A stretch of 64,000 bases of DNA from a virus (IMGVR_UViG_3300044557_000281:26156-90155), one strand, 5' to 3'; counted from the stretch's first letter, positions 17,149 to 54,900 are shown. Notes: a model not told the origin generated them from the letters alone. Program-made: numbers and translations.

Positions 17149-17814
17149 TTAATTTCTTTCTCGAATAGTTGGGAAATGTTCTTTAAACGTTAGGTTATCG
17201 AATAAATCAGTAATGAGATAAGAGTAATCTTTGTAACCGATAATACTGCCTTCATACTTAGTGGAACGTAATGTGTACAATCGTGTATACGTCATATTCA
17301 TTTCCATAGTTTGAATCTTACGACTGATTTCCTTTACTTCCCAATCAATTTTCTTTTGGAGTGCTTTTGTATTGCCACAATCGGGTGATAGTACCACATT
17401 CAAACTGGTTTCTAAAATCTTTAAACTATGGGCAAAGGCATAAATATGATTAGCTCCATTGATATACATAGTGCTGTAGAAGTTATCATACTCTTTATGG
17501 TCTAAGACTTCATATAAGAAAGATTTGTAGGCTTTTCTAAGTTTAAGTACGGTTTGTAATCGTTCTGTTAAAAGGTATGTTTCTGATTCAGGTGCTAATT
17601 CTAGTAGGTGCACTAGGTCTGTGTACACCAAGTTAATGCTACGTGCTTCATTCAATGCGTTTCTAATTAACAAATGGATTGGAATAACCAATTGGTAAGT
17701 TCTTGTTTTGTCACTCCAATTGTCTGTAATATTTTCCACATTCATTAGAATGTTTTCCTTAAAGTCATTTAGTAGTGTAATCGCTGTTTGTTCTTTCATT
17801 TTCATCATATTCAT
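17149..17814 (-). CDS. Hypothetical protein
   Basis: 221 aa with promoter and RBS. Confidence 0.8.
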   Translation of the reverse strand: MNMMKMKEQTAITLLNDFKENILMNVENITDNWSDKTRTYQLVIPIHLLIRNALNEARSINLVYTDLVHLLELAPESETYLLTERLQTVLKLRKAYKSFLYEVLDHKEYDNFYSTMYINGANHIYAFAHSLKILETSLNVVLSPDCGNTKALQKKIDWEVKEISRKIQTMEMNMTYTRLYTLRSTKYEGSIIGYKDYSYLITDLFDNLTFKEHFPTIRERN

Positions 17815-17938
17815 TCTCTCCCTTATTATTTGTTTTGTTCCCTCTCAACACATTAAGAATACCATGTATTATTTATTCCGTCAACACTAATTTATAAATT
17901 AATTTTAAAGGCTAGAAATAAATCTAGCCCTAAGTGGT

Positions 17939-19033: not shown

Positions 19034-20429
19034 TTGAACTACCCCACCTTATTTTCAAAGAAAATTGAAGGTGGGGATTCCTAAGAACTAGACTGACTTA
19101 GAGCTATTTTTTATAGCTCCAGAGGTTATCTATATTGATTAGGCTATCCCCGTAGTCCCTACGGTTCTTTTTTTTTTATTTTAATTTAAGGCTTGATTCA
19201 GAATATTTTGTGCGGCATTGATATCTCTATCATGTGTTGTGTTACAAGAAGAGCAAGTCCATGTCCTTACGGACAATGGTTTTTTCCCGTCTATGACTCC
19301 ACAATTTGAACAGACTTGTGAACTTGGATAGAATCTATCTATCACGACAAGCTCTTTATCGTACCAATGACACTTATACTCAAGCATAGAACGAAAAGCA
19401 CCCCAAGATACATTCACAATAGCTTTTGCTAATTTATGGTTTCTCATAAGTCCTTTCACATTTAAGTCTTCAATAGCAATGAAATCATTCTCTTTCACTA
19501 TTTTTGTGCTTAACTTATGAAGAAAGTCCACTCGTTGATTGCGTACCTTTTCATGTAACTTTGCTACTTTTAGTTTTTGTTTTTGATAGTTTTTTGCCTC
19601 TGAAAGAGCTTTACCATCTCTTTTTGCTTGTTCGTATCTACGAGAAAGGATTCTTTGTTCTTTCTTTAACTGTTCTTCGGCTTTTTTGATGAAGTTAGGA
19701 TTATCTATTTTTTGCATATTCTTGTCTGTCGTAATAGCAAAATGAGTTAATCCTAAATCAATACCAATACTTTTGTTAGTCTTTTCCATTGGTTGAATGT
19801 CTTCTTCTGTTAACAACGAGATAAAGAACTTACCACTAGGATTTCTTCTTATGGTTGCAGAGATAATTCTCCCCTTAACTTCACGAGAAAGTGCAACACG
19901 AACAAGCCCTAATTTTGGAAGTTTGACCTTATTCCCCTTTATGGCAATGTTGTTGTTAACAGATTTAGTTGTGTATGATTGTCTTGAATCATGTTTTTTC
20001 TTGAATCGTGGATAATGATTCACTTTTTTGAAAAACATTTGAAATGCCTTATGTAAGTCAAAAACAGCAGTTTGAAGGGCGATTGAATCAACTTCTTTAA
20101 GAAAATCCGTCCCTTTTTTCTCGTTTGTTAAGTTCTTACTCAAGGTTTTCTTACTAGTTTTTACACCCTTTTCATAATCAGCATTCCATTGAGCTAGTGC
20201 TTTGTTATAGACAAAACGAGTGCAACCGAAAGTCTTATTGATTAAGACAGACTGTTCTTTTGTTGGATAGATTCTAAAACTGTAAGCCTTGTATGTCATT
20301 GGACTTTCGACCCCTTTCTTTACTTGTATTATACCACAAAAAGACTAAAAAGTCAACATTGTAGGGGAATTCATCTCCTCCTTAAAATCATTCTGATTTT
20401 TGAAGAAGGAGTCTTCTTCCCTTTTTTAG
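19034..20429 (-). mobile_element. IS1341-like TnpB-only IS200/IS605 element
   Basis: Right end ...GGTGGGGTAGTTCAA ends at 19034 after a hairpin; left-end hairpin near 20365-20410; left boundary approximate (after TTAT). Confidence 0.85.
19181..20299 (-). CDS. tnpB: RNA-guided endonuclease TnpB
   Basis: IGIDLG, IAIEDL, C-x2-C zinc finger, HDRDINAA. Confidence 0.97.
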   Translation of the reverse strand: MTYKAYSFRIYPTKEQSVLINKTFGCTRFVYNKALAQWNADYEKGVKTSKKTLSKNLTNEKKGTDFLKEVDSIALQTAVFDLHKAFQMFFKKVNHYPRFKKKHDSRQSYTTKSVNNNIAIKGNKVKLPKLGLVRVALSREVKGRIISATIRRNPSGKFFISLLTEEDIQPMEKTNKSIGIDLGLTHFAITTDKNMQKIDNPNFIKKAEEQLKKEQRILSRRYEQAKRDGKALSEAKNYQKQKLKVAKLHEKVRNQRVDFLHKLSTKIVKENDFIAIEDLNVKGLMRNHKLAKAIVNVSWGAFRSMLEYKCHWYDKELVVIDRFYPSSQVCSNCGVIDGKKPLSVRTWTCSSCNTTHDRDINAAQNILNQALN

Positions 20430-27677: not shown

Positions 27678-28565
27678 TTAGAATAGTTGTAAAGTATTGT
27701 TAATAGCAGAAGCCATCATATCTACTGTATTGTCTAACCAACACACAGCCGTATGCTGTTTTCCTTTAGCACTAGGCGTAAGTAATTTGCCATATGCCAC
27801 AGCACTCACTTCACCGTAGGCGCGAATAGTGAACATATCCTGTTTTCCCGAATGACTTCCAAGGAATACAACACCGCTCTCATTATCAGCTTGCTTCATA
27901 GAGGTCATTAACAGATGAGCCAACTCATTGTTGTACCGTTCATTGTACGTCACACCCACTAAGACTTTTGAATTAGTGTGGAAATAGCTTACACGGTTAG
28001 GTTTATTAGCTAAGTCCATACAATAGTCATAGACTTGTTTCCCCCGTGAGTGTATTAAGTAGTTTAATGTACTGAATGGTGAGGCTTCATTGTTTGCTAA
28101 AACACTCCACCAATGAACACTGTTTTCTTCTAATGAGTAGTGTAGCCCTACAGCAGAAACAAATAATGGGTCTTCTGTCTTGTACGCATGGTACATTTGA
28201 ATAAGGTTAAGAAATAACTCCATCCTTTTCTGGCTGTTATAATCAAAGTGAAAGAAGTTTCTTTGGTTTAACCACTCATATAGTAAGACTGTTGGGGATA
28301 GTCTTTCATGGTAGAGGTCTTGGTAATTAGTTGGTGGTCTGGTTTTAGATTCCTCACCATATGACCCTACCCGTAATATTTGCTTGGCGTACTCTACTTG
28401 GTTCCATTCCGTTTTGTCAAAATAAGAGTTCCCAGTAATGACTATATCTTCTGTCCCTATTAAGCTAGTGCTCTCTAGTGGTAACACAGGAACTTCGGTA
28501 TAGTTTGCAATAATAGTTAGCTCTTTTGTTAGCGTGGCTTTTGTTTGTTTAATATAGATGGTCAT
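27678..28565 (-). CDS. Hypothetical protein (possible DHH/DHHA1-like)
   Basis: Start moved to the ATG after AAAGGAGG; family call is tentative. Confidence 0.7.
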   Translation of the reverse strand: MTIYIKQTKATLTKELTIIANYTEVPVLPLESTSLIGTEDIVITGNSYFDKTEWNQVEYAKQILRVGSYGEESKTRPPTNYQDLYHERLSPTVLLYEWLNQRNFFHFDYNSQKRMELFLNLIQMYHAYKTEDPLFVSAVGLHYSLEENSVHWWSVLANNEASPFSTLNYLIHSRGKQVYDYCMDLANKPNRVSYFHTNSKVLVGVTYNERYNNELAHLLMTSMKQADNESGVVFLGSHSGKQDMFTIRAYGEVSAVAYGKLLTPSAKGKQHTAVCWLDNTVDMMASAINNTLQLF

Positions 28566-28899
28566 TATAATTTGCCCTCCTTTGGTCTTATTATAACTCT
28601 TGTTTTGATTAAAGTAAAGCCATAATCTTATTATTTTCATTTGTTTCGGTGGACTGTAAGAGATGTCCGTATACTCGTTGTACCATAGAGGTGTCTGTAT
28701 GTCCTAAACGCTTAGCTACCACCTGTAATGAAATTCCTTTGGGTGAACTACTCACCACTTAGCTAAACCTAACGGTTTCTTACGCTTGAAGTGGGAGCTT
28801 CTTGGGAATAGAGCGTACTTGCAAGCGTATTTCTTTGCTCACAGCGGTGTCTCTTATTTACCAAGCTATCCCCGTAGTTCCTACGGTTCTTGATTGTAC

Positions 28900-30051
28900 C
28901 TAAGCTAATGATTGTATTCTTAGACCTTCGGTCAAGATATTGATACTAGCGTTGATGTCTCGGTCGTGTTGAGTATGACAAATAGGGCAAGTCCATTCTC
29001 GAATATCAAGAGATTTCTTACCATCTTTGTGTCCACAATTCGAACAGATTTGGCTAGATGGAAACCACTTATCTACTTTGATGATTTTCCGACCGTACCA
29101 GTCAGCTTTGTATTGTAATTTAGTCACAAAACTAGACCAAGAAACATCCGAAATACTTTTTGCTAGTTTATGATTACGCAACATACCTTTTGTGTTTAAG
29201 TCTTCAATACAGATGATATCGTGATTTTTGATAATTTCTGTACTCAACTTATTCAGAAAATCAGTACGTTGATTCATTACTTTTTCATGCAATCGTGCTA
29301 CTTTTCGTTTTTGCTTTTGGTAGTTTTTAGCTTCGAATAGATTGATACCTTTCTTTTTAGCTAAAAGACCGCGTCTTGACAACTTACATTGTTCACGTTT
29401 TAGTTTCTTTTCCATTTTGGATGTGAATTTATTATTATCAATTTTTTGTCCGTCAGAAAGAATTGCAAAGTCAGTAATACCTAAGTCAATACCAATCGCA
29501 GACTTCATCTTAGGTAATTCGTTAACTTCTTCTTTGCATAACAGAGAAACATAGTATTTACCGCTAGAATGACGTGAGATTGTAGCGGACTTGATAATCC
29601 CTTTAGGCTGTCTATGAAGTTTAATTTTGATTAATGATTTTAATTTAGGAACTTTGATAAGTCTATTATCAATCAAAGAAATTGTTCCATTTTGATTATT
29701 CGTTGTATAACTCTGAACAGGATTTTTCTTACTCTTGAAACGAGGAAATCCAATGGATTTATCCCGAAAGAAATTCTTGTATGCTTTATCTAAATTAAGT
29801 TGTGCATTGGCTAAAGCAAGGCTATCAACTTCCTTCAAAAACGGAAATTCTTTCTTGTATTTAGCAGGTGTCGGAAAAGTCATTGTTTTAGAAGAATCAT
29901 TTTTTACTTCTTCATACGCCTTTATTCGGTCATTAAGCATTAGATTGTAGACCTTACGGATGCAACCAAAAGACTTAGCAAAGAAAATTTCTTGTTCTTC
30001 TGTTGGATATAATCTAAACTTATATGCTTTTAGTCGTTCCATAAGGCTCAC
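28900..30051 (-). CDS. tnpB: RNA-guided endonuclease TnpB
   Basis: IGIDLG, ICIEDL, zinc finger, HDRDINAS. Confidence 0.97.
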   Translation of the reverse strand: MSLMERLKAYKFRLYPTEEQEIFFAKSFGCIRKVYNLMLNDRIKAYEEVKNDSSKTMTFPTPAKYKKEFPFLKEVDSLALANAQLNLDKAYKNFFRDKSIGFPRFKSKKNPVQSYTTNNQNGTISLIDNRLIKVPKLKSLIKIKLHRQPKGIIKSATISRHSSGKYYVSLLCKEEVNELPKMKSAIGIDLGITDFAILSDGQKIDNNKFTSKMEKKLKREQCKLSRRGLLAKKKGINLFEAKNYQKQKRKVARLHEKVMNQRTDFLNKLSTEIIKNHDIICIEDLNTKGMLRNHKLAKSISDVSWSSFVTKLQYKADWYGRKIIKVDKWFPSSQICSNCGHKDGKKSLDIREWTCPICHTQHDRDINASINILTEGLRIQSLA

Positions 30052-30058
30052 CTACTTT

Positions 30059-30463
30059 CTATTTATGATTATTCCCTTGATTCTGAATATATTTCTTTAT
30101 AACGTCAATCGGTGCACCACCAGTAGTCAAAAGACAGAAGCTTTTAGACCAGAACATTTCCTTCCAGAGAAATTGTTTTACTCTTGGAAAGTCACGTTTT
30201 ATCAAACGAGAACTAGCACTTTTATAGGCATTGATGAATTTTGTTAATTCCGTTTTTGGTTGAGCTTTGAACATGATGTGAATATGGTCTTTATCATGAT
30301 TCCACTCAACTAAAGTAATGTGATACGATTTTGAAATTCTTTCAAAAGTATCTTTAGCATAATCAGATATTTCATCATCAATCACTTGTCTACGATACTT
30401 CGTTACTAAAACAAGGTGGTAATAAAGAAGGAATACTGAATGATTATTTGTGTCTAATTCCAT
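30059..30463 (-). CDS. tnpA: IS200/IS605 Y1 transposase
   Basis: YHLVLVTKYRR, DHIH, FWSKSF, YIQNQ. Confidence 0.97.
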   Translation of the reverse strand: MELDTNNHSVFLLYYHLVLVTKYRRQVIDDEISDYAKDTFERISKSYHITLVEWNHDKDHIHIMFKAQPKTELTKFINAYKSASSRLIKRDFPRVKQFLWKEMFWSKSFCLLTTGGAPIDVIKKYIQNQGNNHK

Positions 30464-30732
30464 GTTATATCAACTCATTTCTTATATAGACTGATTATAA
30501 CATAAGATAAAATAAAAAGTCAATATTGCCTTAACTGTCGGTTTTCGAGTTACCAACGGTAACCCTTATACTGAACGGCATTCATCACCCACCTATAGAG
30601 GATGGGCGACTTCTGCCTAATTCTGTTAAAAGGTAGGAAGCATGTGTATGGCGTAATTTATGGAACGCTGACACTCCACACGACTAAAGTCGTGGGGTTC
30701 TTAGGTAGTACACCCTAACAGGTGCAAATTTA

Positions 30733-30945
30733 CTAAGCTATCCCCGAAAGTCCTTCGGTTTTAATATTTACGCTTGTCCAAGATAATATAACGGGGTATA
30801 GAACCCTATATGTGGGTGCTACTACGATAAAAGATTCGTTTATATATAAGAAAGGGTTTGTAGGGTCTATCTCCACACTAGGTAGAGATAGCTTTTCTAC
30901 AAACCTCTTAACATTGCCTGTTAAACTTAAGTAGGCAACTAACAT
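30733..30945 (-). pseudogene. nrdI: Truncated flavodoxin-like NrdI fused to the tnpB 3' end
   Basis: YLSLTGNVKRF...IVVAPTY, then [11 protein letters not shown], identical to the C-terminus of tnpB 52773-53891. Confidence 0.8.
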
Positions 30946-30947
30946 AT

Positions 30948-31178
30948 TTAAACTGCCAACTTAGCAATCAAGTCAGGTCTAAACCCTGAGAATGGCTCTC
31001 CTACAGGAGGGACTACGAAAGGTGCCTCCATAGCACCTTGGTTGACCGCCTCTTCTCTATACTCGTCATTAAGGTCAATATGTCTCTCTTCATACTCTAA
31101 CCCTAATTTTTCTAACTCTTTCTTAGTAAAGGTACATTGTCCGCACCCTGCCTTAGAATATACAATAACTTTACTCAT
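30948..31178 (-). CDS. nrdH: Glutaredoxin-like NrdH
   Basis: YSKAGCGQC, APFV, FSGFRPD. Confidence 0.9.
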   Translation of the reverse strand: MSKVIVYSKAGCGQCTFTKKELEKLGLEYEERHIDLNDEYREEAVNQGAMEAPFVVPPVGEPFSGFRPDLIAKLAV

Positions 31179-31194
31179 TCAAAACCACCCTTAT

Positions 31195-31914
31195 TTAATG
31201 TATTACTTTATATAATCTTTCTGTCCTACCTCTATTTGAATTGTTTATGGATGATACCCCTATAGTCACCTCTTTGCACCAAAACTCCTCAAAAATGTCC
31301 TCAGGCATATCATACTCACTAATAAGCACTGTGTTATTCTCTGCCATTTGTACACACCACTCATAAAATTCATTATGAGAAAATGTGTCCCGATAACCTA
31401 AGGTACTTTTATAGGGAGGGTCACAATAAATAACGGCACCCGATACTGTTTTAGGGTCATAGTCCTTATACGAGCCTAACCCAAATTTTATACCCTTTAA
31501 GTTAGGAGCTTGGTTAATAATATTACGTATACCTTCACTAGACATGTCACGTTTACCCTTTCTGTCTCTAGCAAACCCGCCAAAGTATTTAGCCCCAAAT
31601 GTAGCACAAAAACCTACTAAGCCAACGTACCAATCAGGGTAGCTATTCTTATTATCCCTAACATTGATATACTCGTCCTCAGTTATCGTACTAGGTAAGT
31701 TACTAATATTGTCCTCGTCTTGGACATAAACAAGTAGTGCAATAAGTTTCTCATGAACATCCGTCCCTATCTTAACTGGACTCTTAATCTTATCAATCAT
31801 ATTAGCCCCTCCAACGAAGGGCTCTATGTACATTGTAGTATCCTCCGTTATATATGATTGAATTATTGGTGCTATTTGTTTACTCAGCCTGTTTTTACTT
31901 CCTACGTATTTCAT
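31195..31914 (-). CDS. Dam-like (D12 class) adenine methyltransferase
   Basis: KYVGSK, IEPFVGG, YCDPPY, LISEY. Confidence 0.9.
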   Translation of the reverse strand: MKYVGSKNRLSKQIAPIIQSYITEDTTMYIEPFVGGANMIDKIKSPVKIGTDVHEKLIALLVYVQDEDNISNLPSTITEDEYINVRDNKNSYPDWYVGLVGFCATFGAKYFGGFARDRKGKRDMSSEGIRNIINQAPNLKGIKFGLGSYKDYDPKTVSGAVIYCDPPYKSTLGYRDTFSHNEFYEWCVQMAENNTVLISEYDMPEDIFEEFWCKEVTIGVSSINNSNRGRTERLYKVIH

Positions 31915-31924
31915 GTTAAACCTC

Positions 31925-32890
31925 CTAGATAAAGTCGTCTGAAAATACTTTGTCCACTAACTCTGTTAAGTAGTTTAAAGTTATTTCACCGTCATTTTCT
32001 TCTAACCACTCATTATAAGCGGAAAGGAACCACAGCATGTAGGTTGTGTCCACTCCGATTAATTGCTCCCTTAAAACGTCAGGGTTTTTCAAATCTAACT
32101 CTTGTAGCTGAAATACCATTTTAAGAATCTGACCTGCGTTAACAGAGAACCCTCTTTGAATAAACTTACGCATACGGAATAGAGAACATAGTGGAAACTT
32201 AGAACCTGTGTATACTAGCTCATGAGTCATCATAGACACAAGGGCTTCCTTAGGTAAACCTAATTCTTTTTCTTTAGGGTCATACCAACAAGTACAATGA
32301 ACGAAATCAAAGTTCTCATGTATTTGTTCAGGAGAACCAACAAACCTCAATATAAGCTGTACTTTACCTGTTAAACTAATTGCGTTGTCTGTAAAATACA
32401 CTGGTTTGTGTCTAGTTTCCTCAGTGTCCTCCACATTAGTATCTTCATCAGTTGTAGGTTTCAAGTCCTCATTTTTAAGTAACTCAGTATCTTGTGCCAC
32501 ACCTGACGATTTTATAAATACTTTTATCGGGTCAGTTGCTCCTTTAAATTTATGTGCGTCTGCCACATCAATATCTACACTCTCGCCTTCTCCTCCATAT
32601 CCCTCTACGGAGGACGTTGTAATATCAGCATACTGTAGTTTAACTGATTCTTTGTTTTTCTTTTTATTAAACATTTTAGCATAGTAATCTGCGACTATAA
32701 TAGCTGAGTACGTGTCCCTAAAGTATATATCTAGGTCGTTCAAATCACCTACCATAAGTAAGCTAGCAACAGCACCTCCTGTTACGAATGTGCCGTCTTT
32801 AGCTACTTTTCTTACTTCTTCGTCTGTTATAGATTCTAGCCATGCTTTGTGTTTTCTACCTATAATGCTTTTTACAGTTTTAGTTTTCAT
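31925..32890 (-). CDS. Nucleotidyltransferase-superfamily protein
   Basis: TGGAVAS...DLDIYF motif; own TTGACA promoter. Confidence 0.65.
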   Translation of the reverse strand: MKTKTVKSIIGRKHKAWLESITDEEVRKVAKDGTFVTGGAVASLLMVGDLNDLDIYFRDTYSAIIVADYYAKMFNKKKNKESVKLQYADITTSSVEGYGGEGESVDIDVADAHKFKGATDPIKVFIKSSGVAQDTELLKNEDLKPTTDEDTNVEDTEETRHKPVYFTDNAISLTGKVQLILRFVGSPEQIHENFDFVHCTCWYDPKEKELGLPKEALVSMMTHELVYTGSKFPLCSLFRMRKFIQRGFSVNAGQILKMVFQLQELDLKNPDVLREQLIGVDTTYMLWFLSAYNEWLEENDGEITLNYLTELVDKVFSDDFI

Positions 32891-32952
32891 AATTATCTCC
32901 TTTTATCATATTTTAATTAATAATACCATAAAAGAGATAATTTGTCAACTAA

Positions 32953-33032
32953 TTACTTTATATGTTTAACTCTAGCGTCAATCTCTTTTTTACGACCATA
33001 CGCATTAGGTCTAGCTTGTGGTTGTCCTAAAT
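32953..33032 (-). pseudogene. nrdD: Orphan 3' exon of anaerobic ribonucleotide reductase
   Basis: (Y)LGQPQARPNAYGRKKEIDARVKHIK matches the NrdD C-terminus at the glycyl-radical CGYLG motif; no 5' exon in the window. Confidence 0.75.
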
Positions 33033-34271
33033 CCTTTATACCCTCGGTTTCCCGATATTTATTAGGGGCATAGACTATACAATCACCTAAACGGTGGCTA
33101 TATTATAGTCGTTGAACGTTATCTATGGTTAACTTTTTATATTTTTCATATTTACGGTCTAGATACACAGTAGCATTCCTGTACAGTATAGTTAACGCCA
33201 TTCTAGCGTTGTTACCTCCTAGAGAGATATAGAAAATACCTTTAGCCCTGTATAACTGACTTTTAGACTTTGGTGCAATTATCGGCTTAACCACTGACAA
33301 GAGTTGTTCAGTACCTAGCATAGAAAACCTAACTCCTGATTTGCTGTTGTATACTGAACCATCTCCATCGAAGTAACCTCTAATAAAGTGGTTAACTAGA
33401 TTATCGTCTAGTTTAGGAAACTTTAGTGTTTTACTTTTGTTGGGTGTTAGCCCCTTGTCTAGTAAGTCATTATACATTTTTCTACTAGTAATGTTTAGTA
33501 CACAATACTTGTAGTCTTCACCGCTGTATGAGCTACTATTGCTAGTATACACATGAATAGGGATGTTACTGCTTAAACTTGAGTTTAATTTGTGTAAGTG
33601 GTCTATATCCTTTACAGATAACTTCACGCCTATAACTTTCCCGTTAGTAACGTACCCATCAGCCATGAGAAAACCTAACCAGTAAGCTTTATGCTCTGTG
33701 TTTATAACCTCAAAGTAGTCGTCATCCCAAGTATAAACCTTACCATTAGACTCTACCCCTCTAATAGAAATGTTATTCTCTAGTAGCACTCTCTTTATTA
33801 CAGATGTGCTTACTGAAAACTTACTGGCTATTGCTTGTTGACTACTTCCTGCATTGTAACTTGTTAGTATAATTTCTATATCTTTATCCGTAAATATTTT
33901 CTTTTTTACCACATGTGTACCTCCTATAAGTTAGTTATACTTATAATATAGCACAATGGAGTTTAACTGAGCCATAAATCTTCGATGCGGATTTCCCATT
34001 TATCCACCCTTAGCACCTTTGTGACAAGGCTTTTATTTCAGCTTAGGTAATCTAACTAATTTTTTCTGCTTTCGCAACGTTCACGCTCACCGTTTCCAGT
34101 CACGTTGTAATTTAGTTAGCTTTACGTATTTCCAGCAATTCAGTTTCTTCATTGGGCAATATGAGTTTTTGTATTGCCTCTAAATGCAAGTTTCCCTACA
34201 TTCTTACAGTACGTCTACGGGCTATCATCCACACGGTTTTAACCGTGTGGGTTTTCTCGCCCGCAAATTCT
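33033..34271 (-). ncRNA. Chimeric group I intron containing a homing endonuclease
   Basis: Core P 34129-34140, Q 33985-33994, R 33106-33117, S 33072-33083. Confidence 0.85.
33103..33912 (-). CDS. Double-motif LAGLIDADG homing endonuclease
   Basis: YWLGFLMADGYV and FIRGYFDGDGSV; ORF runs into intron P7; GGAGG RBS. Confidence 0.93.
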   Translation of the reverse strand: MVKKKIFTDKDIEIILTSYNAGSSQQAIASKFSVSTSVIKRVLLENNISIRGVESNGKVYTWDDDYFEVINTEHKAYWLGFLMADGYVTNGKVIGVKLSVKDIDHLHKLNSSLSSNIPIHVYTSNSSSYSGEDYKYCVLNITSRKMYNDLLDKGLTPNKSKTLKFPKLDDNLVNHFIRGYFDGDGSVYNSKSGVRFSMLGTEQLLSVVKPIIAPKSKSQLYRAKGIFYISLGGNNARMALTILYRNATVYLDRKYEKYKKLTIDNVQRL

Positions 34272-35196
34272 ATAAGTGGTCTGGTACACCGCAAGCGGTT
34301 AAGACTCTTCTTAAAGTTTCGTTCACTGTAGAATTAACTGGGTTACGGTCTGTGGCTACAAAGTAAGGGGCATGTGGTTGAATTGTGTCATAGATGCTTC
34401 GCCACTGCTCAAATTTAGCTAAGAGAGTTAACCAATCTTGGTCAATTACAATCGTTCGTACACTAGATAAGTTCTTGGTTGGGGCATAATCTTTGGTATA
34501 TTTATAATCCCAAGTCTTATCAATTCGGATTGTATTATTGTTGATTGAATCCTGATTTAGTCCTAGAATTTCAGATAAACGAGCACCAGTCTTTAGGGCT
34601 GTGTAAATAGGGAACATATAATACTGGATAGCGGTTTCTCTAGCCCTCGGTTTCCCTTGGGTATTAAAAGAAACTGGTTCCTTGGTTAAGAATGTGTTTA
34701 ACCATGCTTCTGTATAAGAGACCACTCTAGTGTACTCATCTACCTCTAACTATTTCTTGGCATTTCGCTCATTAGACAGTTCTAAGATAGTCATTTGGTC
34801 GTCCTTACTGGTTAGAGTGATACGTTTATAAGGGCTTACTGGGATATAATTATCAATTACTGCGTCCGATAAGCATGATTTTATGTAGTTACTTTCTGTT
34901 TTTACTGTTCGTTTACGGTGGGTTAGCCCGTAGTCTTGCATATACTGCTGAATATCTTTACGAGTAATTTTAGTGAGTTGTAGTTGCCCTAGATTAGATT
35001 TAGCTAATCGGTCTCCTGTAATCGTGTATTTTTCTAAGGTTGCTAATCCTACATTAGGTTTCTTGTATAAGTTTACCCACTCGTTATACCACTCTGTCAT
35101 TTTCATGTTATTTATTCTCTCCTTCTTTGTTTTAAGTACAAGCGTAGTATAACAGTATTTATTAGTGTTGTCAATACTAATGTTAGAGTAAAATAA

Positions 35197-35222
35197 AATG
35201 ATTAGTTGTGTGAACTAATCAT
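35197..35222 (-). terminator. Intrinsic terminator just outside the invertible cassette
   Basis: ATGATTAGTT-loop-AACTAATCAT followed by a T-rich tail on the minus strand. Confidence 0.7.
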
Positions 35223-35258
35223 TCTATTCTTCATGCTATTTAAACAACAAATTTCGTT

Positions 35259-35723
35259 GTTGTAAAACGAGAGGAACTAACGGGAACTGATGTACAGCAA
35301 CGTGTGGAAACGACTATTTACGTAAGAAATAGAATCATTGCTAAATCAATTGTTAAAAACACTTATATTAATCCGGCAAACGGAAATGAAGATTACCAAG
35401 AGGGGAATGCTGTATTCACTACAGCACCCATCGCAATTGCCGTCAAAGAAGTTTCGATAGCAAAATATGAAAAAACTACATATGGAAACATTGCTATGAG
35501 TTTTTATAAAGCTATTCCACCGTCTGGTTTTGTGAATACTCTTGTTGTTACCACAGATGGAGAAACCAAGGAATCTATGTCGTTTACAATTGATGAGAGT
35601 ATTAATTATATCCGCTTTAGTCCTGATGCAAATAACGGCGACTATAATTTTAAATTCAAACTAGTATCTGGAACTGAAATAGGCGGAAGAACACTAGCTC
35701 CAGAGGACATCTTAGCTAGCTAG
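35259..35723 (+). CDS. Silent alternative C-terminus (variant B) of the 35712-36317 protein
   Basis: Open from the repeat (VVKREELTG...YVRNR...TLAPEDILAS); no RBS before the GTG at 35304. Confidence 0.75.
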   Translation, partial: VVKREELTGTDVQQRVETTIYVRNRIIAKSIVKNTYINPANGNEDYQEGNAVFTTAPIAIAVKEVSIAKYEKTTYGNIAMSFYKAIPPSGFVNTLVVTTDGETKESMSFTIDESINYIRFSPDANNGDYNFKFKLVSGTEIGGRTLAPEDILAS

Positions 35724-36200
35724 TATACTTTCAGCTGGAATGGTCCAAATGTATGAATCTTCCGAACTACCTTTTCTTAAAGAAAGCTTGCGTGCCTGAC
35801 AGATAACTGGTAGATTGCCATCATTTTGGGTAATCATGACCAGACCGAGGGTCGTAGAATTTTCGGTTGTCAGTACTGTCGCGGTTGTGATACCCTTGCT
35901 TCCATTTTTCACTTCTTGATTGCTTCCCCAATCTGCAACTGTGCCATCAGAAAGATGGGACTGTAATTGTACACTTAAAGGCAATGTGTTAGAAGGCGCG
36001 GTATTATCAATTTCTATGCTTGCCGTATAATTTTCGTTAGATTGAACATTGAGTAGTTCAATCTCCCCATTGTTCCAACCAGTAAATTTATATTCAACCC
36101 ATTTTGAGGTACTAAGTAAACTAGTTAAATTGCGACTATACACCACTACCCCCTCACGCTCAACGGCACCACTAGTAGCTACAACATCTCGTTTTACAAC
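35259..36200. other. Putative invertible cassette bounded by 14-bp inverted repeats
   Basis: GTTGTAAAACGAGA at 35259-35272 (+) and its reverse complement at 36187-36200. Confidence 0.8.
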
Positions 36201-36317: not shown

Positions 36318-37243
36318 GCGGTTACTCCTTTTACCATAGTAAGAAAGTCAGTTTGAGATAACGAGTGAACAACACTATCCGTATCACTTGCCACACCGTC
36401 CACTGTTATATTAAGACTTTGTTTACTAATGATTTCTGTATTTTCATAAATGTCTTTTGGTGCATAAGTAAAAGTAATTAAGTCTGTAGTAGCCCCTTTA
36501 ATCACTTTGTGTTTGTTGCTATATTTTCCACTATCTGCGTCCATAGTCACAATAAGACTAGCTGTTCTATCGGGGGCAGTGAAGCTGAAGTTCCCTCCGG
36601 CTACTGTGGTTGTATTTTTATCTTGTTTTAACATGGTGCCACCGTCACCATACCATGTGAAGCTCACATTGCCCGTCCCAGCCGGTAGAATGCAACTATA
36701 GACCATCCCACTACTGGCTTTAATAGAACCGGTTACAAAGGAAGCTGTGGCGTCTACGATAGCGCCTGTAGCGTCCACACTCTTTAACGGTGTCACACCA
36801 CCGGTCACAATTAAGTTTTTACTGTACACGGTTTTACCGTCACTGGATTGGATTAAATCTACTGGTGTCACTTGTCCGTACACACTTACATAATACACAA
36901 ACTTACTAACGGTATCTGCCGGTTGTACAGCATACAATAAACCGTCTGTAGCAAAGAAGCTATCGGCATTGTTTATGTGGGTCATAAAGTCGGTCTGACT
37001 AATGGAAATAGTCTCATACTTCCCATTGCTTACTACACCGTCTACTGTAATGAAATAATCAGTCAGTATAGGTAAAGCAGTAAATCCCGGTACGTATTGT
37101 TTTAAGCCGTCACTCGTTCGTTTAACATAGTAACTATTAGGTGGTACAACTTGCCTACTCAATAAACCAGAAATTACTAGTGAAGTTTTATCCCCACTAG
37201 TAATTAGTTTATTGGCAGAATCGTATAATTCGTATTTAGCCAA
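36314..37243 (-). CDS. Putative virion accessory protein
   Basis: 309 aa, beta-rich; two ITVDG..SQTDF motifs. Confidence 0.75.
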   Translation of the reverse strand: MAKYELYDSANKLITSGDKTSLVISGLLSRQVVPPNSYYVKRTSDGLKQYVPGFTALPILTDYFITVDGVVSNGKYETISISQTDFMTHINNADSFFATDGLLYAVQPADTVSKFVYYVSVYGQVTPVDLIQSSDGKTVYSKNLIVTGGVTPLKSVDATGAIVDATASFVTGSIKASSGMVYSCILPAGTGNVSFTWYGDGGTMLKQDKNTTTVAGGNFSFTAPDRTASLIVTMDADSGKYSNKHKVIKGATTDLITFTYAPKDIYENTEIISKQSLNITVDGVASDTDSVVHSLSQTDFLTMVKGVTA

Positions 37244-37261
37244 TTGTTATTGTCCTTTCTA

Positions 37262-37729
37262 TCATTCTATTGGAAATATATCGTTATAAGCCGGTGTCCA
37301 TACTATAGTGGCTGAATCATCACCAGTAGTTGGGATATACAGCTTATAACCTGATTGTGGGTCTAATTCTGGTAAGGTAATCTTGCCGTTAGTGTCAGTC
37401 ATAATTGTTCCGATTAACTCTTGTCGTTGCTCATACTGCCCATATGAATCCTCATCAGTCGGTGCCACTACTTCATAAGAGTAATAACGGACTAAATCAT
37501 AATTCGTATCAGCCAGTAGAACATCTGGCGTACCTGATTTAGGTAGCCAGTTTCTACGATAGTTGTTAACCTCCCCTGTCTCTAATACAAGATTTATCTT
37601 TTTAATGGGTTTATCGTCCACAAGCAATAAATCGTCTACGTCATAAATGTAAGGGAGTGAGTGCAAACCTTGCGCTTTATATATGTTATAGTTGGTTAGA
37701 TTGCATGGCTGAATTGTGTATTTTGTCAT
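37262..37729 (-). CDS. Putative virion accessory protein
   Basis: 155 aa in the Ig-protein operon. Confidence 0.7.
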   Translation of the reverse strand: MTKYTIQPCNLTNYNIYKAQGLHSLPYIYDVDDLLLVDDKPIKKINLVLETGEVNNYRRNWLPKSGTPDVLLADTNYDLVRYYSYEVVAPTDEDSYGQYEQRQELIGTIMTDTNGKITLPELDPQSGYKLYIPTTGDDSATIVWTPAYNDIFPIE

Positions 37730-37864
37730 ACTTCTAAACCGTTCCCTTCACTTGCTACTGTCGTATCAACCATTGCTAAAAAGTCTGCTTGTGAAACTGT
37801 CTCTACGTCATAGTCCCCTGTTTCTACTACACCATCTCTAGTAATTGTAAGGGGTTGCTTAGGG
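37726..37864 (-). other. Candidate +1 frameshift site CCC-TAA and 44-aa extension
   Basis: The +1 frame is open from 37860 to the TGA at 37728-37726. Confidence 0.7.
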
Positions 37865-38515
37865 TGCTGTAACTGTTACTGCACATACGGCTGTTTTAGC
37901 TCCGTCAGTTGTAGTTACCGTTACATTAGCTGTACCAGCCGCTACCCCTGTGATAGTTCCATCAGTACCTACTGTTGCAATTTTTTCATCACTAGACTTG
38001 AATGTCATAGCTTTATTGGTTGCATTCGTTGGTGCGATTGTTGCTGTTGCTTTTACTTTAGCGCCTACGTTTACAGAAGCAGTGGCTTTGTCTAAGGTTA
38101 CACCTGTTACCGTAATGACTACAGCTACTTTATCACCATCTACTAAAATTTCTTGTACACATACGTTATAAGCCGGGAAGCTGAACTCGTCATAAGCAAA
38201 TTCTTTAAAGGCACGTAACGCTACATTTGTTGCGTCACTGTCTGCCGTTGGTGTGAATGTTTCAATTTTAGCTGGATTGTAACGGTCAATGTTCGTATTG
38301 AAAATAGCGTGAACTTTATCTGCTTCAATCAAAATGACTGGTGAACCGTCCGCCCCATCTTCTACAATTTGTTTTACTCCGTCTACGTCTTTCACGCTAA
38401 ACGTGTGTTGATTAAAGATACCAGAATAACCGTCTCGTATCGTTTTTACTACAATGTTACCGGCAATGCCAAAGCCGGCTGTGTTAATTGCCTTATCAAT
38501 TTCTGTATATCCCAT
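37859..38515 (-). CDS. Ig-like (Big_2) domain virion protein
   Basis: VTGVTLDK..ASVNVG...ATIAPTNATNK...SSDEKIATV. Confidence 0.9.
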   Translation of the reverse strand: MGYTEIDKAINTAGFGIAGNIVVKTIRDGYSGIFNQHTFSVKDVDGVKQIVEDGADGSPVILIEADKVHAIFNTNIDRYNPAKIETFTPTADSDATNVALRAFKEFAYDEFSFPAYNVCVQEILVDGDKVAVVITVTGVTLDKATASVNVGAKVKATATIAPTNATNKAMTFKSSDEKIATVGTDGTITGVAAGTANVTVTTTDGAKTAVCAVTVTAP

Positions 38516-38518
38516 TAT

Positions 38519-38884
38519 TTATTTCTCCTTTTGGTCAACTGGTGTGTCTAGTGTAGGAAGTGTTTCCGGTACTTTATCAATAACAGCGTTCATGACTTCT
38601 GCCGTAGCATTTGCCAACTGTTGATTAAAGACCTTTTTCGTTCCTACAGCTTTTGTACCAGCTGTATTTTTACTTTTACCATATTTCGTAACTGGTGAAT
38701 CTTTATACCATGCCCATAGTGCTGATACTCCAAGTACAGCATATGACACATAAGTATAGATGTCGGTGTCTGAAAATGGTAAAGGATTGTGTCCTGTAGC
38801 TGTGATTGCCGAGTTTATAAAGGTTACAGCTGTTACCCCTAAACGTACATAAGCTATCTGTGTATCAGTCAACTTAGTTGTCAA
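38519..38884 (-). CDS. Holin-like membrane protein
   Basis: Two TM helices; NPLPFS..., ALWAWYKDSP.TK. Confidence 0.7.
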   Translation of the reverse strand: MTTKLTDTQIAYVRLGVTAVTFINSAITATGHNPLPFSDTDIYTYVSYAVLGVSALWAWYKDSPVTKYGKSKNTAGTKAVGTKKVFNQQLANATAEVMNAVIDKVPETLPTLDTPVDQKEK

Positions 38885-38961
38885 GTAAAAGACCTCCTAG
38901 CGGTTTTTGTTTACAATGATAATATATTAGGTACACTTATTAAGACACAGAAAAGACTGAT

Positions 38962-39576
38962 TTATTTTAAAAAATCAGCCACTTGGTCTCTTATTTTTTT
39001 AATTAATCTGCGAGTGGTACGGTAAGGTAAATCGTATTTATCACTTGCATAGACTACTAACTCCTTATTTGAGAAGTTTCCACTAGCCATTAAGGTGAGT
39101 AAATCCATTTCAGTAGAGTTTAGCTTCACATGAGTTTGAATATCACAGAACAAGTCTTCAGCTTCCACCGTGTTATCTACATAAATGTGTTCCCCCACTA
39201 AGAGTTCTTCCACCTCATTATCCGTACCGCCTAATGTCTCACGGTGCATATCACGGAAGTAGTTTTTAATGAACACATGTTTCACTCGTAGGTTTAATAC
39301 TTTCTTCACATAACCGGCAAAGTCTACTTCACCATTAATCTCATACTCTTTACACAATCGGATAAATTGCTCATTAATGTATGCCATTAAATCATCTTTT
39401 GCAATGTCGGAATTAAACTTGCTTTCATGGTCACGGAAGATACGCCATCTTAGATTTCTGTATTGGTAGAACAAGCGGTCAGCGTCTCTCATAAAAACAC
39501 CGTTTCCACCCTCTTCTGTCACAAACCGATTCCCATTACGAATAATAGCTTGCTCCTTTGAAATATCTCTAGGCAA
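38962..39576 (-). CDS. Phage RNA polymerase sigma factor
   Basis: DDLMAYINEQFIRLCKEY...DFAGYV region-2-like segment plus C-terminal HTH; syntenic after recA. Confidence 0.8.
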   Translation of the reverse strand: MPRDISKEQAIIRNGNRFVTEEGGNGVFMRDADRLFYQYRNLRWRIFRDHESKFNSDIAKDDLMAYINEQFIRLCKEYEINGEVDFAGYVKKVLNLRVKHVFIKNYFRDMHRETLGGTDNEVEELLVGEHIYVDNTVEAEDLFCDIQTHVKLNSTEMDLLTLMASGNFSNKELVVYASDKYDLPYRTTRRLIKKIRDQVADFLK

Positions 39577-39990: not shown

Positions 39991-42758
39991 TTACTCTGCC
40001 GGTTCTTCAGCAAGTTCAAGTTTATGTTTTTCTTCGTACTTTTCTCGTAATCCGCTAAACCATGGAATACTATCTATAATTAAATTCTCGTTATCTAGTG
40101 GGGCATACCAGTGAGGGAAACTAATCATAATCTCTCTTTGGTAAATCTCTTTCGCTAACTCGAAGTTTTCTTTAAGGAAGGGTACTACATCTTTTCCATA
40201 TAACTTGAATTTTTCTTCACCATCTTCGTTCACATATACTTTCCATGACCCACTTGATTTAATCAAGTTGTATTGGTTGGTATTGTTAGCAGAACGGTAA
40301 ATGTTTTGTTCAAAATCTAAACCAGATTCAGCCATTAGATAAGCTTCTGCTTTCTGGTTTGGTGTAGATACTTTTGATTTCTTCGTAATAAATCGTGCAA
40401 TGTGCCCTACATATGATTCTTCTGTTTTACCAAAAGCATTTTCAATAGACTCTTTAATTTGTGAAGCCTTTTTAACTTCTAACCTTACGGTTGCTACATG
40501 GTGAAAAGCATGACCACCCGGCGAATCCACAGACCCGAACATAGAACCCATTTCATCTCGTGCTTGGTTGATTGCAATCATGCAAACATTTGTTGCATTA
40601 ATAAGCGGTGCTATCTGTGTAGTAAAAGCAGATAACGCCTTGCTCTTTATCCCGTATGTTACGATACAATTCGTTAGATTGTACCTTCTATATGTCACCA
40701 TATAGGGCAGACTATATCATATTCTGTATCGTTACTTACAGAACCTCCCTTTTTCCAATTCACTTGAATTGTACTCTACTCACTTCTCCACCAATACCTG
40801 TAATATTAGTTTCTGTTTTCGATAGTCGTTGCACATTACAACTCGCATTGTCTTTGCTCATGATTATCTATTTTTGATAGACTTTCCATGAATTAAAGGA
40901 GTTTTCTGCAATTATTACTAACTGCAGGGGCTAATCAATAACCCGGTTGTTTATTCGCTAGTTCTTTTTCTAATTCATTTACACTAGGTGTTTGTGCTAC
41001 TGAATCCCATATCAATAAGATAGGGGTTTGTGCTAAAGCAAACTTAGGTAAAATTTCTTTTAAGGTTTCCCCTACAAATTCTACTGTAAGTGCTTCTTTA
41101 GGTTGCCCTGTTACTTTGTCTCGTTCAGGTTCTAATAAAAACACCCTATCATGTTCTGGGTCAGTACCAATAGATACCCCCAGTTCTCTAGCACGGTCAG
41201 GGTCAGCAGTCCCCTCTACGTCTACTAGAATTGTAATACCATTTAGGTATTGCATCATTCTGATTAGCTGTAATGCAAATGTACTATTATGGTTTACGAT
41301 AGACTCTGCAATGAAGCTATGTGTTTCTGGCATCTCTACATCATAGGTTGGCTCTGGGTCTACATCATCAATAGAAATGACTTCGTCATAATAGTAATGT
41401 TCATCAAGCATAGCATCAATATGAGCGGCTAATGCTGTGCTACCAGTAAACTCTGTATACTCTGCTACTAGTTCTTTAGCTTTTTTACGTGAAAGGTGAT
41501 GTTTAGTTACTTGGTCTAAGTTAACTGATTTAGCAGTACGACTTTTTGGTGAAGTGCCTTTAATTAGTGCAACACCTAAAGAGCCTAATGGTACTGTATC
41601 ATGATTGGTACTGTTCACACTAGCATACTCACGAGTCTCTAAAACAGCTAAGCAGTCTTCAGAAACATAAGGAACAACGTCTAAGAATTTTAAAATGTCA
41701 AACCCTGTAATGGATAGCCGGTAATACTTATTGTCTGGGTAAGCCTTAACTACTTTTTCACTAAAGAAAGAGATAACCCCCAAGTTTTTCAACATCAATT
41801 GTACTGAATGGAGTAGGTCTCTTGACGCAGAAGAGACTTCAATAGTACCTTTATCAATGCTTGACTCACACTCAAAGTATCCTTGTAAGAATCCAATTTG
41901 TGCTTCCATATCACCTAATTGGATACAGTTAGGTACAACTTTATCTTTAGCTACACCAACACTCAATCCGTATCTAGTGTAAAAACGTTCTAGTCTTTCC
42001 TTACCATTAACATGTAAGCTAATACTTCCGGGTGAACTATCTTTTGTATACTCTTTTACAATAAAGCCATATTCCATTAAGAATGAAGCGACTTTTCCTA
42101 ACAAATATTTGTTATTATTTGTAAATGTAAGTTTAGTCTTACCAAACGAACCGTCAGCTACCAGACAACCTAATGCAAACGCATCAGTAGAAGAGAAATT
42201 AGTGTGACCCTCAATGCGGTCACCTCGTCTTGTTACTAAGAAATCTCCTACTTTTAGGTCTTGCGCTTTACGCCAAACATGAACTCCATCTTCCATAACC
42301 AATAATGGATGGTTAAGTGTAATCTTTTGAGATAACCCTGTACGTGTAGTTACTTGTTTTAAAGCACGAACACCATTAAATGTTAGTTTAGATGTATGTT
42401 CAACTTTACCATACCGATTAATTAGTGGAACTTGGGCTTCAATTACTTTAGTTGTATTTACTAAAGGATACCCGGCTTCTTCAAATATAGTCCCAAGTGG
42501 TTTGTATCCACTTGGTGTTAGAATTACTGTATCTTTTGAAAGACATTTACCACTGGCATTAATACCGAAAACCTCATTAATTCTACCGAATGGTAGTCCT
42601 CCACCTAAGATATAATCTAATTGTGGAATACCAGTTGGTAATCTATCGTGAATAGCAGATTGTTCTGTATCTTGGTATAAAGTCACTCCAAGTTTTTTGC
42701 TTAAATCTACTACAGAATCGCCATCATTAAATGACGCTTTACTTGCTCTTGTTGCCAT
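39991..42758 (-). CDS. recA: RecA-like recombinase; exons 42758-40941 and 40650-39991; contains an intein
   Basis: PTGIPQLD, Walker A GINASGK|ST, IWDSVA, KQPG|IKSKAL, AINQARD, GGHA; about 405 aa mature. Confidence 0.95.
40651..40940 (-). ncRNA. ORF-less group I intron in recA (290 nt)
   Basis: P 40883-40894, Q 40857-40865, R 40823-40834, S 40709-40720; exon 1 ends in U, intron ends in G, join is in frame. Confidence 0.9.
41286..42545 (-). mobile_element. LAGLIDADG intein (420 aa) in the RecA P-loop
   Basis: Starts CLSKDT, ends VNHN before Ser; LGCLVADGS and FLQGYFECE motifs. Confidence 0.95.
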
Positions 42759-51918: not shown

Positions 51919-54900
51919 CTAATTTAACAATCTAATTAGTTCTCCTGTACCATCTGCTTTCACGGAATGTTCATGAATGACTTTCCATGCTAATTCTTTC
52001 CCTAAGTCGTTAGCGTCCTTCTTATAAGGGTTAATGACCATATAGGTATTTTTATGATAGGGCTTAATCCGTTCAGCTAACCAGTAAATTTTATCTTTAG
52101 CGTCTTCATCTAGCATAATATAAATCTTCTGGTCTTCTGTTAGGTCTTCTGTAATGAGTTGTATCTGTTCATCTGTAATCTGCTTCCCAAATGTTCCTAC
52201 ACCCGATATACCTAATGTAAGTGCGTCTGGTACGCCTTCTGTAATCACAAGTTCTTTACAACGCTTTGCACGATTTAGATTAAACACCGCTGTGCCTTTT
52301 GAATACTCATGGTCTTTGGCTGGTGCATTTACCGATTTTACAAAGGAATCTCCAATTGCTCGTGTGTTCCAATAAATCACTTGCCCTAAATCATTATGAG
52401 TTAGAAACACCACATGGTTTTTTAGAGTGAGTGTTTTATGGCTAGGGGTTTCTATCTTAGAATAGGTAATGTACCCAATGTTATGGACTATGATGTCTTC
52501 TGTGGTAAACCCTCGTTTATTTAAGTATTGCAGGAACGGGATAATTTCTGGGTTCGTCCAGTTATCTGCAATCCTTTTAAATCCCGGTGGAAGTAACGGA
52601 CAAGTGAGTTGCTCGTGTACTGCTTCAGTGACTTTCTTTATATCGTTCATATGAGAAATCAGCATGAGTAGCTGTTCTTCTGGACTTAATGACGTATCGA
52701 CTTTATCCTGACACTCCACACGACTAAAGTCGTGGGGTTCTTAGGTAATACATCCTAACGGACGTAAATTTACTAAGCTATCCCCGAAAGTCCTTCGGTT
52801 TTAATATTTATGCTTGCATTAATATCTCTATCATGAGTTGTTCCACAATTTGAACATATCCATTCACGAATATTTAGTTCTTTTTTACCGTCATTATGAC
52901 CGCAAACAGAACAGATTTGTGAACTAGGATAGAATCGGTCTACTTTAACTAAAGTGCGACCTTTCCATGCACATTTATAGCCCAGTTGTCGAACGAATTC
53001 ACTCCAAGATACATCTGCTATTGACTTCGCTAATTTATGATTTTTAACCAACCCTTTTACATTCAAATCTTCAATACAAATGATTTGGTTCTCATCAGTA
53101 AGTCGTGAAGATAGTTTATGTAAAAAATCAGTACGTTGGTTTGAAATTTTCTCATGGATACGCGCAACTTTAACTTTCTGTTTTTGATAGTTGCGACACT
53201 CATCTAATTTTCGATTGTGTTTTTTCGCAACTTCCAAACGCTTGGAAAGTTTTCGTTGTTCGCGTATTAACCGTTGTTCAAGAGAGCGATAGAATCGGTT
53301 ATTATCGATCTTTTCTCCTGCGGATGTGATACAGAAATGAGTTAAGCCTAAATCTAATCCAATGTTATTTGCTACGGGTTCTTCTATGAAATTTTCAGTA
53401 TCAACTAAAAACGTTGCAAAATATTTCCCTGATTTGCTTTGACTAATCGTTACGTTCATTAGTTTTCCTTTAAAACGCAATTCTTCTGCCATTTTGACCC
53501 AACCGACTTTCGAAACATAGAAGTATCGACCATTGACTTTCATGCCTACGGCAGTTCGATAGGATTTCTTCGAGTGTTTTTTACTCTTAAATTTAGGAAA
53601 GCCAAAATTAGATTTGAATGTATTCTTATATGCCTTGTTTAAATCCATATTCACTTGACTAAGAGGTTGTGCTTCAACTTCTTTTAGCCAAGAAAACTCT
53701 TCTTGCTTCTTAAGTCCAGCATAGGTTAGTTTATTTTCAATATATTCAGGATTTTCTTTTTTCATCTTATAATTCGTAATTCTCTGGTCTAGTAAAAAAT
53801 TCCAGTAGAATCGAACGCAACCAAAGGTTTTTTGAAATTGAATTTCCTGTCTTGAATTCGGATAGATTCTAATTTTATGAGCTTTTTTCATTTCTGTACA
53901 CCTCCTTAACGTAAACTCAGTATCTTGTTCTTTGATTTTCTACATATTGTTTTATAGTTTCGCTAGAAACGTTTCCTGCTGTTGAAACAAAGTAAGACCG
54001 TGTCCAAACACTTGGCATTTTGCTCAAGTGCTCAAACGATTGTCGTAACTCTCTTGATGTTTTTCCTTTAATCACCTTCATGACATCTGCCGGCGAATAG
54101 ATTGGTTGAACATTTACAAAAAGATGACAATGGTCTTTATCTGTTTCTATTGCAATGATTTCCCATTCATTTTCTTTACAGATTGAATGGACAAGAGTCT
54201 TAAAACTAGCGTCTACTTCGGAATTGACAAATATTTTCCGACGATATCTAGGACAAAAAACAAAATGATAGTTGAGTAACGATACAGTTGTCTTAGTATG
54301 TCTGTACTCGTTATCCATGAGTTAATTATACATTAATTAGTGTACGAAGTAAATATTTTTATACACAAATAGTAAAACTTTTTTGACTTTATCGTGTGGA
54401 GTTTGTTCACATAGGTTCGCTATTTCCTATGCAGTTCTCTTATGAACTTCTTACGCTTTCACGCAAGCACAGACTATATCTTATCCGTTGGCTTTACCCA
54501 GTACGGCGAAACCACTTCGAGTCGCTTGACCCTACTTCCCTCAAGAGGAATAGTCGTTGAACCTTCCTATTTCTAAGCTTGGCTGCTGATTTCCGATTGT
54601 GTAACACTTAGGATTTAACCTTATGCCATCTGATTGATTTATTCTGCTTTCGCCACCGTCACGCTTGAGTTTGGTTATCTCTACGTTGTGGTTCAACCAG
54701 CTTTACGGATTTCCAGCAATTCAGTTTCTTCATTGGGCAATATGAGTTTTTGTATTGCCTCTAAATGCAAGTTTCCCTACATTCTTACAGTACGTCTACG
54801 GGCTATCATCCACACGGTTAAAACCGTGGGTTTTCTCGCCCGCAAATTCTATAAATGGAATCATCTATGGAATAATCGTAAACGGCTAAAATGTCTTTAG

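Follow-up and report, generated by a model that had tools for sequence, protein, structure and literature searches.

The stretch of DNA analyzed here (the window, 64,000 nucleotides) comprises bases 26156-90155 of IMGVR_UViG_3300044557_000281 (G000), a ~90-kb linear viral contig in IMG/VR that is metagenome-derived and carries a rating of ~60% complete. Within a tyrosine-recombinase gene of this phage, at window positions 30668-34271 on the minus strand, lies a 3.6-kb element that has the two ends of an IStron, that is, a group I intron combined with an IS200/IS605 element, and between them ~3.3 kb of phage genes. We consider it likely that the element is a one-off recombination product formed inside a resident IStron, through crossovers in dispersed group I intron modules and one illegitimate joint. 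Formally, its sequence would make it a non-autonomous, cargo-bearing IS200/IS605 shell with both cis-acting ends kept, and its most likely function is that of an accessory-gene island fixed in place. What was observed in the sequence itself is the architecture of the element, its breakpoints, the loci of donor type, and the helix mispairing described below; positions are those of the window unless a contig is named.

The ends were identified by comparison with a plain, complete group A IStron that interrupts the primase gene in the same window. By repeat search and BLAST, the left end (34102-34256) is 92% identical to positions 54683-54837 of the primase IStron, with weaker homology (85%) onward to 34035/54613, and the right end (30668-30776) is 94% identical to 52708-52816. 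Alignments show that both copies start directly after TTAT and terminate in TCAG. The left end contains a spacer for the TnpA site and a 10-bp subterminal hairpin (34250-34229), along with the intron elements P1 (guide GTAAG, ~34207-34203) and P2 and the 5′ halves of P3, P4, and P5; the positions of these P elements were transferred from the primase copy through its Rfam alignment. The right end consists of the last 14 tnpB codons, two stem-loops, a subterminal hairpin (30697-30676), and the terminal TCAG, which doubles as the 3′ splice site. Both subterminal hairpins are intact, the left one 20 nt from TTAT and the right one 8 nt from TCAG. There are no inverted repeats and no target duplication, the flanks being TTAT on one side and CGTT on the other. 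Group A IStrons (CdISt1-like) insert 3′ of TTGAT, ATTAT, or TTTAT and end in TCAG (PMC4227781); the pentamer upstream of the present element, CTTAT (34276-34272), is outside these three and has the TTAT part in common with them. When position 34272 is joined to 30667, the recombinase frame is restored at the DNA level and reads ...GVPDHL-S-FHKLRHTHASYLL..., which regains the box II motif of tyrosine recombinases. A preliminary description of this locus had claimed the near match of the ends, the shared target and terminus, and the restoration of the frame upon precise removal, and all of these were reproduced.

In IMG/VR the right-end pattern was found in one other phage, IMGVR_UViG_3300012078_000128 (G001), which has a plain IStron, while the left-end pattern gave no exact match. 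The G001 IStron (36848-38993; L014 6848-8993) follows TTTAT and belongs to the same family, with 80% identity over 2.15 kb; its host gene encodes DNA polymerase III alpha (PHP domain/pol3 alpha) in a 118-kb phage that has terminal repeats and is unrelated in other respects. Because positions 34100-34040 are closer to the G001 copy than to the primase copy, the left end is, as judged from this comparison, not a fresh copy of the left end of the primase IStron. Loss of a bulged T from the left-end hairpin was considered as a change that would disable TnpA binding and was rejected, as the G001 copy likewise lacks the bulge.

The interior is a mosaic of four pieces, namely the IStron left end, the core of an endonuclease intron, a block running from nrdD to nrdI, and a filler followed by the tnpB tail and the right end. 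The first crossover, from the IStron intron to the endonuclease intron, falls at ~34122-34116 in sequence shared by the introns. Positions 34140-33036 are 98.1-98.5% identical to introns that split a DUF2828/DUF7788 gene in contigs L018-L021, and all relatives of the endonuclease at 69-76% amino acid identity (~30 contigs, including L026-L031) also reside in the DUF2828/DUF7788 gene; the length of the endonuclease open reading frame (ORF) is the same in relatives of 69-100% identity. The homing intron is thus off its home site here, its first ~55 nt being swapped and its 3′ exon being nrdD. The second crossover lies within a 45-nt 3′ module common to the endonuclease intron and the last nrdD intron, and the switch to the nrdD type occurs inside this module, 3 nt before the splice site. 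This 3′ module (the last ~45 nt of the intron) also occurs in the last nrdD intron of G000 itself, with 94% identity extending over the last 65 nt, and is present at G000 6309-6360 as well. The phage's own nrdD (G000:C1:13735-18040, plus strand, upstream of the window) contains several group I introns, and the last of them (17690-17942, no ORF) interrupts the glycyl-radical motif CG/YLG at the slash.

Homology to the nrdD genes of two related contigs, L015 and L016, begins exactly after the terminal G of the intron, and 33032-30808 is collinear with their nrd locus, where the order is nrdD, nucleotidyltransferase, 239-amino acid methylase, nrdH, and nrdI, then a second methylase, nrdE, and nrdF. 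Identity to L015 amounts to 91-99% at the nucleotide level across the nrdD tail (~97% for the exon itself) and the nucleotidyltransferase gene, drops to ~60% at the amino acid level in nrdH and nrdI, and ends altogether at 30808 (nrdI codon 47); in a relative found in run X4, the native nrdI continues past 30809. The element carries four and a half phage genes, nrdI being a fragment and the other cargo ORFs intact. The third joint places a 31-nt filler between nrdI and the tnpB tail, so that the NrdI N-terminus is fused to the latter as one ORF (30945-30733). No source of the filler was found in G000, G001, or L015-L021. The nrdI breakpoint follows ACATAT (30808-30813, minus strand; ACTTAT at L015 12078-12084), which is TTAT-like; a break made by TnpA cleavage was nonetheless rejected, since the chemistry of the family puts the left end at such a site and not the right end, and the resemblance is treated as coincidence.

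Most of what the preliminary description had said of the interior is borne out. There is no tnpA or tnpB gene inside the element, only the 14 terminal tnpB codons; the nrdD 3′ exon is real; the nucleotidyltransferase, the Dam-like methyltransferase, nrdH, and an nrdI fragment joined to the last tnpB codons were all recovered by Pfam matches and homology to L015; and the unbroken nrdD-to-nrdI locus that it had suggested looking for is present in L015 and L016. The intron core, which it had called nrdD-type, has to be reassigned to the DUF2828/DUF7788 type, nrdD-type sequence being limited to the final 3 nt and the exon.

The first crossover also affects the ribozyme. In three native introns (primase IStron, L018 intron, and G000 nrdD intron) the P3, P4, and P5 helices have 5/5, 6/6, and 4/4 pairs, formed by different sequences in an identical register, and the helix assignment is confirmed by this covariation. 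The corresponding counts in the recombinase chimera are 2/5, 5/6, and 2/4, and the duplex energies of its P3 and P5 are positive. The mispairing arises because the first crossover parts 5′ strands of IStron type from 3′ partners of endonuclease-intron type. The chimeric ribozyme is therefore predicted to be unable to form P3 and P5, and splicing has probably been lost. Rfam searches of 29000-36000 and 32980-34300, at the gathering threshold and at E ≤ 10, returned no group I intron (RF00028), a null result that is weakly informative since a 0.8-kb ORF splits the native intron as well, which scores just 11 bits; with RF00028, a weak match to P4-P6 was obtained in the native L018 intron, whereas the chimera gave none. 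Use of the proximal 3′ splice site in spite of this would fuse the 25-residue nrdD tail in frame to recombinase exon 1.

The interrupted recombinase gene is a pseudogene three times over, through the element, an in-frame TAG, and a second IS200/IS605 element that lies within the gene just 50 nt downstream of the right end of the IStron. The TAG (KK-stop-LEVDEY) is situated between the SAM-like and catalytic domains and is probably a mutated Trp codon. The tnpB region of the second element is 88% identical to the transposase region of Enterococcus phage EFP01. With the host gene in this state, decay and recombination in situ account for the structure no less well than capture and subsequent transposition do. 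Relatives of the recombinase were sought for an empty site or a plain IStron, and only homologs of 29-39% amino acid identity were present in the searched collections. The coordinates of all features are collected in Table 1.

Table 1. Features of the element, its host gene and the reference IStron (window coordinates; aa, amino acids)
Feature	Position	Strand	Remarks
Tyrosine recombinase exon 1	34273..35106	-	in-frame TAG at 34750-34752
TTAT target and 5′ splice-site tetranucleotide	34272..34275	-	end of recombinase exon 1; TTAT also precedes primase IStron
IStron-type left end	34120..34271	-	92% identical to primase IStron; 111-nt exact run at 34238-34128
LAGLIDADG-endonuclease group I intron core	33033..34119	-	3′ strands of P5, P4; P6, P7, P3 3′ strand, P8, P9; ends AGG
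LAGLIDADG homing endonuclease ORF, intact, 269 aa	33103..33912	-	Pfam LAGLIDADG_3 + HTH_38; phrog_4645
nrdD 3′ exon, last 26 codons (Y of CG/YLG to stop)	32953..33032	-	(Y)LGQPQ...VKHIK-stop
Predicted sigma-70-like promoter (TTGACA, 17 nt, TATTAT)	32920..32948	-	upstream of nucleotidyltransferase; read from sequence; -35 kept in L015
Nucleotidyltransferase, 321 aa	31925..32890	-	phrog_4400; 311/321 aa identical to L015 protein
D12-class (Dam-like) N6-adenine DNA methyltransferase, 239 aa	31195..31914	-	192/239 aa identical to L015
NrdH-like glutaredoxin, 76 aa	30948..31178	-	
nrdI codons 1-47, ending ...APTY	30808..30945	-	Pfam NrdI on residues 3-47; native gene 119 codons
31-nt filler at illegitimate joint	30777..30807	-	in frame on both sides
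IStron right end	30668..30776	-	94% identical to primase copy, 90% to G001 copy
Recombinase middle piece, 50 nt (FHKLRHTHASYLLTEL)	30618..30667	-	
Second IS200/IS605 element, unrelated	28738..30617	-	tnpA 30463-30059 (134 aa), tnpB 30051-28900 (383 aa); ends ±1-2 nt
Recombinase last piece	28609..28737	-	LGH...Y, catalytic Tyr
Plain IStron in primase gene (reference)	52708..54850	-	ribozyme 54788-54450, tnpA 54318-53917, tnpB 53891-52773

In the explanation we favor, a group A (IS200/IS605-type) IStron would have sat at the TTAT site of the recombinase gene, and a later swap would have put DNA of a related phage in the place of two thirds of the ribozyme, the whole of tnpA, and tnpB except for its tail, with scattered group I intron modules serving as the portable homology. 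Crossover 1 would have joined the IStron intron to the homologous endonuclease intron of a DUF2828/DUF7788 gene; crossover 2, in the 45-nt module shared with the last nrdD intron, would have led on to the nrdD 3′ exon, the nucleotidyltransferase, the Dam methylase, nrdH, and nrdI; and joint 3 would be illegitimate, from nrdI codon 47 through the filler to the tnpB tail. The order of these events and the mechanism of recombination are what we infer. Several points weigh against this explanation. The order cannot be reconstructed, because the element is known from a single genome and the recombinase has no close relative in the searched collections (≤39% amino acid identity), and the loss of splicing is read from base-pairing only. 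The two ends appear intact and a cognate TnpA is encoded, which makes past or present movement together with the cargo possible. Moreover, the pairing of a 6-bp stem in the right end (30708-30731, minus strand), which may belong to the scaffold of the TnpB guide RNA, is kept by different sequences in the three copies, and these compensatory changes suggest that the right end has been under selection at least until recently.

Such movement is the core of a rival explanation, a working non-autonomous cargo transposon whose mosaic would have been built elsewhere and would have moved as a unit, or would still be able to move, by means of the TnpA of the primase IStron, with TnpB and its guide RNA perhaps helping in maintenance. 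That TnpA (53917-54318) is apparently intact (Y1_Tnp match at 4e-39, HUH motif and catalytic Tyr kept), and TnpB is intact as well, so the primase IStron is a putative source of both proteins in trans. TnpA of IS608 and ISDra2 needs the ends only and acts in trans. The intact and correctly spaced hairpins, the precise insertion without target duplication, the compensatory changes in the right-end stem, and the occurrence of the same family as a plain 2.1-kb copy in the unrelated G001 are all consistent with a mobile element. On the other hand, the mispaired ribozyme would render insertion into a needed gene lethal, and with it the main advantage of an IStron would be gone; the host gene is dispensable anyway; no close relative of the recombinase shows an earlier state; and excision of IS608 declines with the length of the element. 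The survey of IStrons is relevant in both directions, since IStrons without ORF A are reported there as having spread, whereas the lengths range from 482 to 2582 nt, short of the 3.6 kb found here, and the variation consists of ORF loss only (PMC4227781). Exact-match scans of IMG/VR and of the JGI metagenome contigs, which detect near-identical copies only and in which the window's own record was skipped, yielded no second copy of either internal junction. The reading of the element in the preliminary description as an IStron derivative with captured cargo holds for the structure (IStron ends, no transposase of its own, and part of a nucleotide-metabolism locus), while there is no sign of movement as a unit because no second junction copy was found. 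We regard a working cargo transposon as unlikely, and somewhat less probable still is its specific form in which TnpA would excise the 3.6 kb in single-stranded form and insert them at TTAT sites elsewhere, with TnpB, guided by RNA from the right end, perhaps defending the filled site.

A one-sided homing accident would be a specific mechanism for recombination inside the resident IStron rather than a true alternative to it. A cut in the resident IStron intron, by the LAGLIDADG enzyme or through another break, would have been repaired by copying from the endonuclease intron of a co-infecting phage through the flanking genes, and end joining in tnpB would have closed the gap. It would account for a left joint in intron homology, a continuous donor tract, and a non-homologous right joint with a 31-nt filler; the endonuclease ORF is intact, and it is established that phage introns co-convert their flanks when they home. 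Flank co-conversion is also discussed in the IStron survey (PMC4227781). We nevertheless hold this mechanism to be doubtful, as the DUF2828 intron and nrdD would already have to be joined in the donor tract, cutting of the IStron intron by the enzyme is hypothetical, and the outcome is indistinguishable from ordinary ectopic recombination. An assembly artefact, with molecules joined by way of repeats that also occur in the primase IStron, or interiors swapped between the two host genes, would be conceivable for a linear, metagenomic, ~60% complete contig in which the two copies have exact runs of 111, 45, and 40 nt in common. The Logan contigs (k = 31) of the probable source run break inside these repeats and nowhere else, the link between flank and interior is unbridged, and none covers the whole stretch. 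Each unusual internal joint is, however, contained in a single contig (30741-33068 and 33039-34157) at a depth of 93-98x, equal to that of the flanks, and the copies are distinguished by an indel and several substitutions beside the repeats, which at ≤111 nt are within reach of ordinary 150-nt reads. Run X2 holds identical recombinase/left-end and cargo pieces, and the swapped layout would place a dead ribozyme in the essential primase gene. An artefact is accordingly very unlikely in our view. No joint that skips the element, as expected of an empty site, was seen in the Logan contigs covering the locus.

The cargo genes are probably expressed as ordinary phage accessory genes, because they are intact and have brought along a predicted promoter of their own. 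The nucleotidyltransferase and all its homologs carry the precomputed Pfam label PF26128 "Gad2" (a label only), and Gad2 is an anti-Gabija protein (bioRxiv 10.1101/2023.05.01.538930); together with the Dam methylase, this Gad2-like protein may form an anti-defense pair. In the X4 relative, the nrdD tail (33065-32962) is joined to nrdH (31039-30982) by 201 other letters, without the 1.9-kb nucleotidyltransferase-methylase pair, and the pair is for this reason taken as a variable insert in the nrd locus. Searches for related loci gave transposase DNA only as matches among cultured phages (megablast of 28000-36000), best identities of ≤38% with the nucleotidyltransferase and the endonuclease as tblastn queries, and no match to the nucleotidyltransferase in the related-locus search of IMG/VR.

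By its gene content (G1 gp67-like protein, SbcC, DnaG, PolA, RecA), the phage looks like a member of the Herelleviridae type. The window is rich in mobile elements, with group I introns at 40688-40950 and 54450-54788, a recA intein, and three Y1 transposase genes, and the phage has at least four units of IS200/IS605 type. The recA gene (39991-42758, minus strand) holds a LAGLIDADG intein within 40935-42758 in addition to the first of these introns. The third Y1 tnpA (7032-7427, minus strand) encodes a protein with 68% amino acid identity to the TnpA of the primase IStron; a tnpB gene on its own (372 amino acids) is located at 19181-20299 on the minus strand. A perfect 70-nt tandem duplication (63691-63830), ~170 nt from the contig end, is either real or an end-of-contig artefact.

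To our knowledge, IS200/IS605 elements and IStrons are usually viewed as minimal, without passenger genes, and a full-text literature search found no description of a natural IStron or IS605 element with cargo or passenger genes. The present locus offers a concrete route by which IStron ends could come to bracket cargo, in that look-alike group I intron cores of an intron-rich phage would act as dispersed homology that stitches together an IStron, a homing intron, and a neighboring gene block. If the ends still work, phages would offer in this element a natural prototype for cargo transposons that move as a single strand by "peel and paste", and, were the element such a transposon, IStron ends would ferry a candidate anti-defense pair between phages. 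If the ends are dead, the locus still illustrates clearly how intron-mediated shuffling of genes has brought a candidate anti-defense module into a genome new to it.

Compared with known systems, the element resembles group A IStrons in its TTAT-ending site, its TCAG end, and the intron at its 5′ end, and also in lacking IS ORFs, a loss that is common in that group. It differs from them in its interior, where an endonuclease intron of foreign origin and four and a half phage genes are found instead of IS genes or the remains of a simple deletion, in its size (3.6 kb vs 0.48-2.58 kb for the family), in its mispaired P3 and P5, and in having no RF00028 match. With mobile LAGLIDADG group I introns in phage genes it shares a core and ORF that are 98% identical to those of the DUF2828/DUF7788 intron, whereas the core here has lost its home exon as well as the 5′ strands of P1-P5 that belong to it and has an nrdD exon beside it. 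Non-autonomous IS200/IS605 derivatives (PATE-like elements, and C. difficile IStrons without a full TnpA; bioRxiv 10.1101/2023.11.20.567912) are similar in having cis-acting ends only and needing TnpA in trans; those derivatives, however, are short and multi-copy, while the element described here is long, single-copy, and equipped with unrelated protein genes.

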